Positions 2,461 through 37,959 are shown, counted from the stretch's first letter. The stretch: 64,000 nt of DNA from Escherichia coli (GCF_003334305.1 NZ_QOWS01000013.1), one strand, 5' to 3'. Program-made: numbers and translations. The notes: generated by a model from the sequence alone, not told the origin.

Positions 2461-3642
2461 TTAGCGTTCAACGATCGCGATGCGGCGGTTATAGATATTC
2501 ATCAGCAGCGAGATAGTCAGGCTGATAATCAGATAGACCGACATGGTCATGGCTATCGTCTCGATGGCTTGCCCCGTCTGGTTCAGCACGGTGCCAGCAA
2601 ACAGCGAAACCATATCGGGATAGCCAATAGCGGCGGCAAGAGAGGAGTTTTTGACGATGTTGAGATACTGGCTGGTTAACGGCGGAATAATCACTCGCAG
2701 TGCCTGGGGAATAATGACCTGGCGTAGCGTAACCGGGTTGGGTAATCCCAGTGACCGAGCCGCTTCATGTTGACCATAAGGCACTGCCTGGATCCCAGCG
2801 CGGATAATCTCGGCGATAAATGCAGATGTATAAACCGAAAGTGCCAGCGTTAAGGCTGCCAGTTCAGGAATTAAAACCATCCCGCCGCGGAAGTTAAAGC
2901 CTCGTAGGGCTGGGACATCCCAGTGTAGTGCTGCGCCAAAAAGCCATTGCGCCAGTAAAGGCAAACCAATGATCAACACTGCGGCGATCGGCCAGGTGCG
3001 GCGCAGTTGTCCGGTCTTTATCTGGTATGTTTTATTAAAGCGGAATAGCCCAACAGAAAGGACTATAGCCATAACAACAGCCAGGATAAACGCAATAAAT
3101 CCGTCTCCCAGCTGCGGTGACGGAATATAAAGCCCACGATTGCTCAAAAAGGCCAGATCAAACGCGCTCACAGCCTGGCGTGGTCCGGGCAAATTGCGCA
3201 ACACGGCAAAGTACCAGAAGAAGATTTGCAGCAGCGGGGGAATATTACGGAAGATCTCAATATAAATTGTGGATAGTTTTCGTAGCAGCCAGTTATCCGA
3301 AAGTCTCGCCAGACCGATAAAGAAGCCTAAAACAGAAGCGAACACAATACACAATGCAGAAACCAGTAGCGTATTGAGTAAGCCGACAATAAAAACGCGT
3401 CCGTAGGTGTCGCCCTGCTGGTAATCGATCAAATGCTGGACAATACCGAAGCCAGCGCCGCGATCCAGAAAGGCAAAACCTGAAGTAATGCCACGATTAT
3501 TGAGATTCGTTACAGTGTTGTGAAATAACCAACCAACAATGCCGACAACAGCAACAACGGCAAGGATCTGGAATAACCAGGCGCGAACCGTAGGGTTGGC
3601 AAAAGAGAGTGAGCCTTTAACGGTTGAGCGGCGATGAGACAT
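2461..3642 (-). CDS. yhdX: Amino-acid ABC transporter permease
   Basis: Hydrophobic permease ORF; track ORF (to 3660) trimmed to internal Met MSHRRSTVKG… matching the ~393-aa protein as I recall it. Confidence 0.88.
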   Translation of the reverse strand: MSHRRSTVKGSLSFANPTVRAWLFQILAVVAVVGIVGWLFHNTVTNLNNRGITSGFAFLDRGAGFGIVQHLIDYQQGDTYGRVFIVGLLNTLLVSALCIVFASVLGFFIGLARLSDNWLLRKLSTIYIEIFRNIPPLLQIFFWYFAVLRNLPGPRQAVSAFDLAFLSNRGLYIPSPQLGDGFIAFILAVVMAIVLSVGLFRFNKTYQIKTGQLRRTWPIAAVLIIGLPLLAQWLFGAALHWDVPALRGFNFRGGMVLIPELAALTLALSVYTSAFIAEIIRAGIQAVPYGQHEAARSLGLPNPVTLRQVIIPQALRVIIPPLTSQYLNIVKNSSLAAAIGYPDMVSLFAGTVLNQTGQAIETIAMTMSVYLIISLTISLLMNIYNRRIAIVER

Positions 3643-3709
3643 AGAAACCTCGGAAAGCATAACGCTGAAGAGAGCGCCGCCGTAGCGACGCCCGTTACCT
3701 CACACCGAC

Positions 3710-4735
3710 TTAACGCACGGGCGGCGCGTACTGAATACCGCCGTTATTCCAGAGATTATTTTGCCCACGTTTAATTTTCAGCGGGCTTTCTGAACCTACG
3801 TTACGCTCGAAAATTTCCGAGTAGTTACCCACCTGTTTGATGATGTTATAGGCCCATTTATTATCCAGCTTCAGATCCTTGCCGTAATCGCCTTCTTTAC
3901 CCAGCAGATGTGCCATATCAGGCGTTGCTGGATTAGCCGCTTTTTCATCGACGTTCTGGGAATTGATGCCCATCTCTTCAGCATTCAGCATGGCGAAAAG
4001 CGTCCAGCGTACAATCGAGAACCATTCATCATCGCCACGACGAACTGCCGGCCCAAGCGGTTCTTTAGAGATAACCTCCGGTAAGACAATCCATTCAGCT
4101 GGGTTGCTTAATTTGATGCGCAGGGCATACAGTTGCGACTGATCCGAGGCCAGCGTATCGCAGCGACCAGATTCCAGTGCCTTCGCTGATTCGTCAGAGC
4201 GATCGAAAGTCACCGGTGTGTACTTCATATTGTTTGCCTTGAAATAGTCGGCAACGTTGAGTTCGGTATCAGTACCCGCCTGAATACAGACGGTAGCGCC
4301 ATCCAGTTCTTTCGCGCTTTTTAGCCCCGCTTTATCGTGCGTCAGGAAGCCAATGCCGTCGTAATAAGTGACGCCGGTAAATGCCATTCCCATCCCGGCA
4401 TCGCGAGATGAAGTCCAGGTCGTATTACGGGAGAGCAAATCCACTTCCCCTGACTGTAAAGCGGTGAAGCGTTCTTTTGCTGTGAGTGGGGTATATTTCA
4501 CTTTCGTGTCGTCACCAAATACAGCAGCGGCAACACCACGACAAACATCAACATCAATACCTGAAAACTTACCGTCTGCATCGGCATAAGAGAACCCAGG
4601 TAATCCATCACTGATCCCGCATTGCACAAAACCTTTTTTCTGAACGGCATCAAGCGTCGCGCCAGCATGCGCCTGATTTGCAACGGCAAGCAGCACGCTG
4701 GCGGCAGCCAGTGTGGCTATCATCATCTTTTTCAT
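3710..4735 (-). CDS. yhdW: Periplasmic amino-acid binding protein of ABC transporter
   Basis: 341-aa ORF with N-terminal signal peptide (MKKMMIATLAAASVLLAVANQAHA); first gene of yhdWXYZ. Confidence 0.92.
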   Translation of the reverse strand: MKKMMIATLAAASVLLAVANQAHAGATLDAVQKKGFVQCGISDGLPGFSYADADGKFSGIDVDVCRGVAAAVFGDDTKVKYTPLTAKERFTALQSGEVDLLSRNTTWTSSRDAGMGMAFTGVTYYDGIGFLTHDKAGLKSAKELDGATVCIQAGTDTELNVADYFKANNMKYTPVTFDRSDESAKALESGRCDTLASDQSQLYALRIKLSNPAEWIVLPEVISKEPLGPAVRRGDDEWFSIVRWTLFAMLNAEEMGINSQNVDEKAANPATPDMAHLLGKEGDYGKDLKLDNKWAYNIIKQVGNYSEIFERNVGSESPLKIKRGQNNLWNNGGIQYAPPVR

Positions 4736-35308: not shown

Positions 35309-37276
35309 ATGGGTATTTTCTCCATTGCTAACCAACATATTCGCTTTGCGGTAAAACTGGCGACCGCCATTGTACTGGCGCTGTTTGTTGGCTTTCACTT
35401 CCAGCTGGAAACGCCACGCTGGGCGGTACTGACAGCGGCGATTGTTGCCGCCGGTCCGGCCTTTGCTGCGGGAGGTGAACCGTATTCTGGCGCTATTCGT
35501 TATCGTGGCTTTTTGCGCATCATCGGCACATTTATTGGCTGTATTGCCGGACTGGTGATCATCATTGCGATGATCCGCGCACCATTATTGATGATTCTGG
35601 TGTGCTGTATCTGGGCCGGTTTTTGTACCTGGATATCCTCGCTGGTACGAATAGAAAACTCGTACGCGTGGGGGCTGGCCGGTTATACCGCGCTGATCAT
35701 TGTGATCACCATTCAGCCGGAACCATTGCTTACGCCGCAGTTTGCCGTCGAACGTTGTAGCGAGATCGTTATCGGTATTGTGTGTGCGATTATGGCGGAT
35801 TTGCTCTTTTCTCCGCGATCGATCAAACAAGAAGTGGATCGAGAGCTGGAAAGTTTGCTGGTCGCGCAATATCAATTAATGCAACTCTGTATCAAGCATG
35901 GCGATGGTGAAGTTGTCGATAAAGCCTGGGGCGACCTGGTGCGACGCACCACGGCGCTACAAGGCATGCGCAGCAACCTGAATATGGAATCTTCCCGCTG
36001 GGCGCGGGCCAATCGACGTTTAAAAGCGATCAATACGCTATCGCTGACGCTGATTACCCAATCCTGCGAAACTTATCTTATTCAGAATACGCGCCCGGAA
36101 TTGATCACTGATACTTTCCGCGAATTTTTTGACACGCCGGTAGAAACCGCGCAGGACGTCCACAAGCAGCTCAAACGCCTGCGGAGAGTTATCGCCTGGA
36201 CCGGGAAACGGGAAACGCCTGTCACCATTTATAGCTGGGTCGCGGCGGCAACGCGTTATCAGCTTCTCAAGCGCGGCGTTATCAGTAACACAAAAATCAA
36301 CGCCACCGAAGAAGAGATCCTGCAAGGCGAACCGGAAGTCAAAGTAGAGTCAGCCGAACGTCATCATGCGATGGTTAACTTCTGGCGAACCACACTTTCC
36401 TGCATTCTGGGCACGCTTTTCTGGCTGTGGACGGGCTGGACTTCCGGCAGTGGTGCAATGGTGATGATTGCGGTAGTGACGTCACTGGCAATGCGTTTGC
36501 CGAATCCACGCATGGTGGCGATCGACTTTATCTACGGGACGCTGGCCGCGCTGCCGTTAGGGCTGCTCTACTTTTTGGTGATTATCCCTAATACCCAACA
36601 GAGCATGTTGCTGCTGTGTATTAGCCTGGCAGTGCTGGGATTCTTCCTCGGAATAGAAGTACAGAAACGGCGACTGGGCTCGATGGGGGCGCTGGCCAGC
36701 ACCATAAATATTATCGTGCTGGATAACCCGATGACTTTCCATTTCAGTCAGTTTCTCGACAGCGCATTAGGGCAAATCGTCGGCTGTGTGCTCGCGTTCA
36801 CCGTTATTTTGCTGGTGCGGGATAAATCGCGCGACAGGACTGGACGTGTACTGCTTAATCAGTTTGTTTCTGCCGCTGTTTCCGCGATGACTACCAATGT
36901 GGCACGTCGTAAAGAGAACCACCTCCCGGCACTTTATCAGCAGCTGTTTTTGCTGATGAATAAGTTCCCAGGGGATTTGCCGAAATTTCGCCTGGCGCTG
37001 ACGATGATTATCGCGCACCAGCGCCTGCGTGATGCGCCGATCCCGGTTAACGAGGATTTATCGGCGTTTCACCGACAAATGCGCCGCACAGCAGACCATG
37101 TGATATCTGCCCGTAGCGATGATAAACGTCGTCGGTACTTTGGTCAGTTGCTGGAAGAACTGGAAATCTACCAGGAAAAGCTACGCATCTGGCAAGCGCC
37201 ACCGCAGGTGACGGAACCGGTTCATCGGCTGGCGGGGATGCTCCATAAGTATCAACATGCGTTGACCGATAGTTAA
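35309..37276 (+). CDS. aaeB: Aromatic carboxylic acid (p-hydroxybenzoate) efflux pump subunit
   Basis: 655-aa polytopic membrane ORF following aaeA. Confidence 0.95.
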
Positions 37277-37367
37277 GTCAAAACCGACGCCAAAAGCGTC
37301 GGTTTTTTCATGGCTATACTTAGCGATGAACGGCAGAACTCGCCGCGAAACGTGACGGTGGCAACAG

Positions 37368-37640
37368 ATGAATATTTATACCTTTGATTTTGATGAGATT
37401 GAGAGTCAGGAGGATTTTTATCGCGACTTCAGCCAAGCCTTTGGTCTGGCGAAAGATAAGGTACGCGATCTCGACTCACTATGGGATGTGTTAATGAACG
37501 ATGTCCTGCCGCTACCACTTGAGATTGAATTTGTTCATCTGGGAGAGAAAACGCGTCGCCGTTTTGGCGCGTTAATATTGCTGTTTGATGAGGCAGAGGA
37601 AGAGCTGGAAGGGCATTTGCGTTTTAATGTTCGTCATTAG
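37368..37640 (+). CDS. yhcO: Barstar-like (ribonuclease inhibitor family) protein
   Basis: 90-aa acidic [30 protein letters not shown]…; barstar-family fold assignment from memory. Confidence 0.85.
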
Positions 37641-37643
37641 CGC

Positions 37644-37668
37644 AAAAAAAAGCCCCCGAACCGGGGGC
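37644..37668. terminator. Bidirectional hairpin terminator between convergent yhcO and yhcN
   Basis: AAAAAAAAGCCCCCGAACCGGGGGC with flanking A/T tracts. Confidence 0.7.
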
Positions 37669-37695: not shown

Positions 37696-37959
37696 TTATT
37701 TGTACAGTTCAGCCGTAGCGTGCCAGGTGTCACCGCTACGAGCTTCAGTAATCTGGTAGGCCGTTGCGCCTTTCTCTTCCGCTTTTTTGTTCAGCATTTC
37801 ACGTATATCCATTGGCGAAGACGCCACACCACTTACGGATACGGTCCCGATTGCTTCACGGTTTTGTGCTTGTGCAGCATCAATGGAGTCGGCAGCGAAT
37901 GCACCGAAAGAGAGAACAGAAAGTACGCTTAATGCAGCAACAGTGGTTTTGATTTTCAT
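37696..37959 (-). CDS. yhcN: Periplasmic stress-induced protein (DUF1471/YhcN family)
   Basis: 87-aa ORF with signal peptide MKIKTTVAALSVLSVLSFGAFA. Confidence 0.9.
   Translation of the reverse strand: MKIKTTVAALSVLSVLSFGAFAADSIDAAQAQNREAIGTVSVSGVASSPMDIREMLNKKAEEKGATAYQITEARSGDTWHATAELYK

Follow-up and report, generated by a model that had tools for sequence, protein, structure and literature searches.

yhcO of Escherichia coli is very probably the surviving inhibitor of a barnase–barstar pair once encoded downstream of aaeB

yhcO encodes a small barstar-family protein that stands without a partner nuclease gene. We analyzed it in a 64,000-nucleotide stretch of Escherichia coli DNA (GCF_003334305.1, NZ_QOWS01000013.1; hereafter the window), where it occupies positions 37368..37640 on the + strand, and in related loci from other bacteria. 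With respect to its evolutionary origin, yhcO is very probably the surviving inhibitor of an ancestral barnase–barstar pair linked to the efflux pump gene aaeB. The wider account, in which this barnase-loss origin is combined with a YhcO that is still functional and changed in specificity, is somewhat more probable than its alternatives taken together.

The relatives of yhcO are mostly paired with an RNase gene. An exhaustive HMMER search of 1.84 billion representatives yielded 111 YhcO relatives. Thirty full-length relatives were aligned with barstar, and the alignment was used to retrieve 80 loci, one genome per species, by the peptide pattern [FKY][GV]x[ND]LD[AS]LWD. The Bacillus barnase sequence, validated against PDB 1A2P, was then run by phmmer on all six-frame open reading frames (ORFs) of these loci. 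A barnase homologue lay immediately upstream and on the same strand in 66 of the 80 (phmmer E = 1e-13 to 1e-42; intact copies at most 1e-33), usually ending 0–5 nt before the barstar start codon. Among the paired genera were Yersinia (with Y. pestis), Serratia, Xenorhabdus, Photorhabdus, Proteus, Providencia, Hafnia, Edwardsiella, Pantoea, Arsenophonus and Regiella, and the pair was also present in some Bacteroidota and Leptotrichiaceae metagenome-assembled genomes. The Serratia copy belongs to Pfam PF00545 Ribonuclease. Barnase residues K27, D54, N58, R59, E73, R83, R87, H102 and Y103 were retained in 64–65 of the 66 homologues, the exceptions being evident pseudogenes, and 62 of the 66 had a hydrophobic, signal-like N-terminus. 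By these features, the copies look like active enzymes that are exported, and each is translationally coupled to an inhibitor that stays in the cytoplasm. The searched literature held neither a functional study of yhcO nor a description of an enterobacterial barnase–barstar operon, and as far as it shows, these operons have had no experimental characterization.

Four gene orders were found downstream of aaeB. In eight Yersinia species, Ewingella, Rouxiella, Chimaeribacter, Edaphovirga and others, aaeB is followed by a succinate-semialdehyde dehydrogenase gene (SSADH), barnase and barstar. Serratia has aaeB, barnase and barstar. The order in Enterobacter, Lelliottia, Kosakonia, Citrobacter amalonaticus and Erwinia mallotivora is aaeB, SSADH, barstar, yhcN, argR and mdh, and that in E. 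coli, Salmonella and Klebsiella oxytoca is aaeB, barstar, yhcN and argR. The slot between aaeB and yhcO, a 91-bp intergenic region in the window (37277..37367, from locus architectures and tblastn), is thus occupied by SSADH and/or a barnase gene in related genera. Read from the sequences, the four architectures form a deletion series at one orthologous locus. Two extra contexts, fetched by exact protein identity with no motif pattern, both agree with this series: a Q-V-type protein lies in the order aaeB, aldehyde dehydrogenase, barstar, two yhcN copies and argR, with no RNase, and an F-S-x-N-type protein in the order yhdP, tldD, PF00545 RNase, barstar, DarP and pmbA. For Enterobacter, Lelliottia, Kosakonia and Citrobacter amalonaticus, we considered whether the 1.5-kb insert that separates aaeB from yhcO hides a nuclease and set this aside, the gene being the SSADH.

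Phylogeny places the orphans within this locus history. In a neighbor-joining tree built on about 90 columns, the orphan proteins were monophyletic in 199 of 200 bootstraps (150 of 200 without the interface columns) and branched beside the aaeB-linked paired barstars. The mean identity of the window YhcO was 51% to aaeB-linked paired barstars versus 40% to other paired ones. Erwinia mallotivora shows the Enterobacteriaceae-type orphan order aaeB, SSADH, yhcO, two yhcN copies, argR and mdh; the other Erwiniaceae (Pantoea, Winslowiella, Mixta and Erwinia endophytica) have barnase–barstar pairs elsewhere. The E. mallotivora arrangement could be due to horizontal transfer or to an earlier loss.

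Traces of barnase loss survive outside the Enterobacteriaceae. When the 66 barnases were compared by tblastn with 700 bp upstream of every orphan gene, no remnant appeared in any Enterobacteriaceae, including the window intergenic region, and the sole remnants were those of Hafnia psychrotolerans. There (about 3612–4000 of its locus, L046) the signal-peptide region and the last 30 barnase residues are detectable, the catalytic core is deleted, and the barstar retains the ancestral FGANLDALWD. In Edwardsiella ictaluri (L065, 3774–3995) and an Arsenophonus endosymbiont (L037, 3496–3994), a shortened barnase (about 73 aa) or one broken into two frames stands next to an intact barstar ORF. The decayed barnases of these three bacteria show that the toxin half has been lost repeatedly with the inhibitor kept. 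E. ictaluri and the Arsenophonus endosymbiont, each with an independent barnase loss, are both host-restricted bacteria. Because pairs are widespread and their motif is shared with Bacillus barstar, a single barnase loss in the ancestor of the Enterobacteriaceae-type clade is the parsimonious reading.

Some paired loci carried further features. In Yersinia pestis NCTC5923 (L029, 1815–3313), the SSADH that lies between aaeB and barnase is present as two overlapping ORF fragments, a probable pseudogene, and the barnase–barstar pair downstream of it looks intact. The loci of 'Enterobacter cancerogenus' M004 (L050) and Pantoea sp. alder81 (L070) are near-identical, including the flanking aaeA-like gene; the M004 record may be a mislabelled Pantoea. 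Downstream of barnase–barstar and yjgA in Serratia marcescens (L016, 5061–5754), two small overlapping ORFs resemble, by eye, a toxin–antitoxin pair of the HigB/HigA type.

We next consider the protein itself. The yhcO ORF runs from ATG to TAA exactly over 37368..37640 and encodes 90 aa plus stop. Several E. coli chromosomes match the surrounding 1.5 kb with 100% identity, and in them RefSeq labels the ORF 'yhcO: barstar family protein' between aaeB and yhcN, and the coding sequence is present in one copy per genome in all 5426 of 5426 complete E. coli genomes (at least 90% identity and at least 80% coverage). The exact ORF, the annotation and this occurrence establish a real gene and not a chance ORF. 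Its product has 21 Asp and Glu against 10 Lys and Arg, with an isoelectric point of 4.48. The sole Pfam match is PF01337 Barstar (E = 1.2e-9, residues 1–81 against model positions 1–85 of 96). PDB 2CX6, 'hypothetical protein YhcO', differs from the window protein at one residue (A24 here, T24 in the deposit), and PDB 5F4C, the Salmonella orthologue, matches at E = 1.3e-44. YhcO has the barstar alpha/beta fold, a three-stranded parallel sheet packed against helices, and the family's DxxxD acidic pair on helix 2 with a Trp between (D36, W39 and D40). A preliminary description had presented yhcO as an orphan gene for an acidic, barstar-like protein of 90 aa and had made its reading depend on the fold; the Pfam match and the two structures bear it out on these points. 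Against classical barstar chains, phmmer gave marginal matches only (E = 0.06–1).

Scans of YhcO against NCBIfam, PADLOC and PHROGs returned no family, and hence no defense-system or phage link was found. We also considered YhcO as the antitoxin of a type II toxin–antitoxin system and rejected this, since the only Pfam match is Barstar, no DNA-binding domain was detected, PADLOC gave no match, and the ancestral partner, an enzyme whose signal peptide marks it for export, is not a cytoplasmic toxin. Among the relatives, three metagenomic ORFs of 137 aa (P0029, P0031 and P0032) have YhcO as their first 80 residues plus a precomputed LytTR (PF04397) match and are probably frameshift or assembly artefacts. 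A 255-aa protein (P0213) carries a barstar-like domain only at its C-terminus, residues 173–251.

The orphans differ from the paired barstars in one segment. YhcO residues 28–45 (codons at 37449..37502, + strand, placed by the alignments) are equivalent to barstar's barnase-binding loop and helix 2, the part in contact with barnase in the 1BRS complex, whose role is also reported from the mutagenesis of Schreiber and Fersht. Our interface alignment held 82 proteins. The paired group of 68 comprised the 66 barnase-linked barstars, Bacillus barstar and the H. psychrotolerans protein with its barnase remnant only, and all 68 read [FY]-G-x-N-L-D-A-L-W-D. All orphans in the alignment read K-V-x-[DN]-L-D-S-L-W-D and have one extra residue after helix 2, near position 44. 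Where the paired proteins have [FY]-G-x-N, the window YhcO has K31-V32-R33-D34. The only columns at least 90% conserved in both groups and yet differing between them were YhcO 31, 32 and 37 (barstar Y30, G31 and A36). Further differences are at position 34, where the paired proteins have an invariant Asn (barstar N33), and in the insertion, and all of these lie within the barnase-contact segment. That motif type separates perfectly according to barnase presence was not imposed by the retrieval pattern. D36, W39 and D40 of YhcO correspond to barstar D35, W38 and D39, the last of which is the strongest hot spot of barstar. In a pattern-free alignment of 31 diverse homologues, D36 and D40 were invariant and W39 was at least 90% conserved.

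Residue counts in a pattern-free sample of 89 orphan-clade cluster representatives refine this picture. Val was found at position 32 in 87 of the 89, and D36, W39 and each of E75, E77–79 and E81 were present in all 89. Position 31 was Lys in 66, the rest being Arg, Asn, Ser, Gln, Thr or Glu and never aromatic. Position 37 was Ser in 56, Thr in 26 and Ala in 7, and position 34 was Asp in 79 and Asn in 8. Position 40 was Asp in 66 and Glu in 21, so that about a quarter of the lineages have this hot spot in relaxed form. Positions 29, 30, 33 and 41–46 vary freely between genera. Over the whole orphan clade, the order is a polar or basic residue, Val or Ile, any residue, and Asp or Asn. The counts thus describe a loop that is remodelled and partly relaxed, next to a strongly constrained Val 32, D36/W39 helix 2 core and acidic helix-4 stretch (E75–E81). 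We infer that YhcO has lost barnase binding.

The gene as a whole is conserved. Pairwise Nei-Gojobori estimates of dN/dS (nonsynonymous over synonymous substitution rates) in the orphan clade had a median of 0.15 and a range of 0.04–0.27, with 0.04–0.05 within Escherichia, and are rough, many between-genus dS values being saturated. The medians for paired barstars were 0.07 in Yersinia, 0.09 in Serratia and 0.16 in Xenorhabdus/Photorhabdus. The yhcO ORF was intact in every genus sampled across the Enterobacteriaceae. Together, the ratios and the intact frames show, at the level of coding sequence, a gene that is not decaying and is under long-term purifying selection.

yhcO also appears to have its own transcription signals. 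An intrinsic terminator of aaeB, ACCGACGC-CAAAA-GCGTCGGT then T6 (37283..37308, + strand), is kept in E. coli, Salmonella and Klebsiella and, as read from sequence, sets yhcO apart from the aaeXAB operon. Just past it lies CTATACTTA (37314..37322, + strand), a probable yhcO promoter element that fits the sigma-S extended -10 consensus. This element was located by eye and by cross-species conservation, being kept in E. coli, Salmonella and Klebsiella in a spacer that is otherwise divergent; a sigma-70 promoter scan upstream of yhcO called no promoter. A CTATACT element stands downstream of aaeB in nearly all aaeB-linked loci, whatever gene comes next, and GCTATACT(T/G) follows aaeB across families (L004–L066) whether SSADH, barnase or yhcO is next. 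The presence of the -10 element regardless of the next gene points to a single ancestral promoter, stress-responsive and serving the entire cluster. GGTGG at 37357..37361 (+ strand), 6 nt before the ATG, may be a weak Shine-Dalgarno-like element. In published work, yhcO is RpoS-dependent (PMC2907692), is induced at the growth transition into stationary phase (PMC2241611) and by acid (PMC2270276), and is activated by LldR (PMC10272880). The weak LldR box given for yhcO, cttTcGcCaGACCAaag, scores 8/14 (PMC10272880). It reads ctttggtctggcgaaag on the other strand at window positions 37438–37458, inside the yhcO coding sequence and outside the promoter region.

From these findings we propose the following course of events. 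An ancestral barnase–barstar pair would have stood just downstream of aaeB, and its barnase would have been deleted once, in the Enterobacteriaceae ancestor. The inhibitor was retained and either turned into or remained a monocistronic core gene behind the sigma-S-type -10 element. Its contact loop has been rebuilt, with the aromatic residue replaced by Lys or another polar residue, Gly by Val, Asn by Asp and Ala by Ser or Thr, and with one residue inserted. As a small acidic protein, YhcO would still bind stoichiometrically, plugging or decoying a basic nucleic-acid-binding surface in the manner of barstar, and would act in stationary-phase or stressed cells on a target that is no longer the ancestral co-encoded barnase. 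We tentatively suggest that YhcO is a former immunity protein, since domesticated: it would have been brought under the sigma-S general stress regulon, and its loop rebuilt for a new endogenous basic nucleic-acid-binding target. Candidates for this target include a further RNase or, from a resident toxin–antitoxin system, a toxin with the BECR fold.

Several points weigh against this proposal. The saturated dS values blur the estimates of selection, and the tree was made by neighbor joining on few columns. Within the motif, invariance is partly imposed by the pattern that retrieved the 80 loci, and K31 and S37 are less fixed in the pattern-free sample than the 14 orphan loci suggested. The retained D36, W39 and E75, and mostly D40, are equally expected of a working barnase inhibitor. 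In literature up to 2023, the function of yhcO is listed as unknown (PMC10272880). Bacterial expression hosts are killed by active Bacillus barnase, and producing the enzyme in E. coli required that barstar be expressed alongside (PMC8625414), from which it follows that chromosomal yhcO gives no practical protection in laboratory conditions. This failure could reflect lost affinity, low yhcO expression in growing cells, or both.

The preliminary description had noted that orphan immunity genes can protect against exogenous toxins, and YhcO might in this way neutralize barnase-family or BECR-fold RNase toxins injected by other bacteria through a type VI secretion system (T6SS)/Rhs, contact-dependent inhibition (CDI) or similar route. 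Like the products of the orphan immunity genes of CDI, Rhs/T6SS and colicin loci and the Imm-Barstar of Zhang et al. 2012, YhcO is of immunity type and toxin-less, and it retains the barstar fold and the DxxxD signature of the family. Imm-Barstar is linked specifically to barnase-like toxin domains, including those of T6SS/RHS polymorphic toxins in gamma-proteobacteria (PMC3482391), and Zhang et al. 2012 also list it with Ntox21 (PMC3482391). Barnases are encoded by relatives in E. coli habitats (Proteus, Providencia, Hafnia, Serratia and Yersinia), and the variable positions around the loop (29, 30, 33 and 41–46) are as in a possible arms race. However, orphan immunity genes tend to vary from strain to strain and to be found in toxin or immunity islands, whereas yhcO is a single-copy core gene with low dN/dS in a housekeeping setting, outside toxin/immunity islands, and would have been born by deletion of the adjacent barnase at a vertically inherited locus of the Enterobacteriaceae ancestor, not by acquisition of a stray cassette. 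For yhcO, we found neither a cognate barnase-type toxin with a delivery domain in the genomes, plasmids and phages searched nor a location in an accessory island. Three positions that never vary among the barnase-linked barstars (aromatic 30, G31 and N33) are all replaced, and the enterobacterial barnases, which carry signal peptides but lack delivery domains, would fail to enter the cytoplasm of another cell. The killing of E. coli by Bacillus barnase when no barstar is supplied (PMC8625414) also counts against this reading. No resident barnase came to light either. Against E. coli genomes, the Serratia barnase–barstar operon in blastn distant mode matched only the 3' part of yhcO, and eight concatenated enterobacterial barnase catalytic domains matched none of the 5426 genomes; these nine enterobacterial queries, run by blastn only, reach about 65–70% identity, and divergent toxin domains could be missed. 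By tblastn, no barnase homologue was found on Enterobacteriaceae plasmids or in about 50,000 phage genomes, and homologues were found on Bacillus and Clostridium plasmids. The evidence leans against immunity to foreign toxins, which we regard as rather doubtful, and of the two we lean toward a new endogenous partner.

It is very improbable that yhcO is a functionless relic, merely left after the barnase deletion. The cognate RNase is gone, no phenotype or partner of yhcO was found in the searched literature, the hot-spot Asp is Glu in 21 of the 89 lineages and the loop has drifted, all as such a relic would show. Yet the ORF is intact in all sampled Enterobacteriaceae genera and in the 5426 E. 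coli genomes, its dN/dS is similar to that of barstars still with a partner, V32, D36, W39 and E75–E81 are essentially invariant, and the promoter element is conserved and transcription regulated. Remnants are visible after recent loss, as in H. psychrotolerans, and none is seen in the Enterobacteriaceae. The loss is therefore old, and by now a gene of no use would have decayed. We consider the reverse direction, in which a lone barstar-like gene after aaeB was ancestral and Yersiniaceae and others inserted a barnase later, to be just as far-fetched. Synteny alone gives no direction, but tight pairs extend across Morganellaceae, Hafniaceae, Yersiniaceae, Erwiniaceae, Budviciaceae, Bacteroidota and Leptotrichiaceae, the paired barstars share [FY]G-x-NLDALWD with Bacillus barstar, and the orphan motif occurs only within a single nested clade. 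Independent barnase decay in H. psychrotolerans, E. ictaluri and the Arsenophonus endosymbiont also speaks for loss and against gain.

Set beside known systems, YhcO shares only about 20% identity with Bacillus amyloliquefaciens barstar (PDB 1BRS, 1A19; PF01337). Barstar Y29, Y30, G31, N33 and A36 are D30, K31, V32, D34 and S37 in YhcO, which has the one added residue after helix 2, and no partner RNase gene lies alongside yhcO. The barstars of the Enterobacterales operons (for example Serratia marcescens L016, 3534–4300, and Yersinia pestis L029) are orthologous to yhcO by synteny, downstream of aaeB or of tldD, with 47–54% protein identity. They share with YhcO a near-identical C-terminal half (RRFGA(L/I)(I/V)LLF(D/E)...) and with its locus the CTATACT after aaeB. 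The paired barstars have a secreted-type barnase gene 0–5 nt upstream and an F-G-x-N loop, whereas yhcO stands alone with K-V-x-D. Salmonella Typhimurium YhcO (PDB 5F4C, 'Ribonuclease inhibitor barstar') shows no substantial difference from the window protein, Salmonella enterica usually having Thr at 37; its inhibitor name was given by homology. The gene, family assignment and structure of yhcO are already in RefSeq, Pfam and PDB, and its orphan status is visible in any genome browser. What the searched literature lacks is the enterobacterial operon at the aaeB locus, the deletion series and the clade-specific loop remodelling, a modest but concrete addition.

The surroundings of yhcO are those of core chromosome. 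The whole window runs from the end of rrnD to arcB, with yhcO between aaeXAB and yhcN-argR-mdh. Its neighbors are as first described: aaeB, the efflux pump subunit gene and upstream synteny anchor (35309..37276, + strand; annotation and locus comparison), and yhcN, a convergent downstream gene for a YdgH/BhsA-like stress protein (37696..37959, - strand; annotation). The window's annotated genes include no barnase-type RNase, and phmmer with barnase against all six-frame ORFs of the window returned nothing, which makes the label 'orphan' correct. Two nucleases in the window, rng (RNase G) and yhcG (PDDEXK nuclease), were dismissed as partners of YhcO, being of unrelated families and many genes away. 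Between the convergent yhcO and yhcN, the GC-rich hairpin GCCCCCGAACCGGGGGC (37652..37668; terminator scan and sequence), with a clean T-run on the - strand, is probably a bidirectional terminator. Two tandem yhcN-like (YdgH/BhsA family) genes follow yhcO in most non-E. coli Enterobacteriaceae (L006–L014, L030, L085), and one in E. coli. Positions 1–350 of the window hold an rRNA operon tail, 5S rRNA, tRNA-Thr and a second 5S rRNA (the rrnD end, from the RefSeq annotation of an identical strain).

yhcO is an uncharacterized E. coli K-12 'y-gene' despite two crystal structures (2CX6 and 5F4C), and its basic classification is unchanged by this work, as gene, fold and family were already catalogued. 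Its orthology to the inhibitor of the Yersinia and Serratia operons turns a vague annotation into a testable question. The locus offers a clean natural case of asymmetric loss in a toxin–inhibitor pair, in which the toxin gene can go first, apparently several times independently. If the domestication reading is true, yhcO would be a documented exaptation of an RNase inhibitor after the loss of its toxin.
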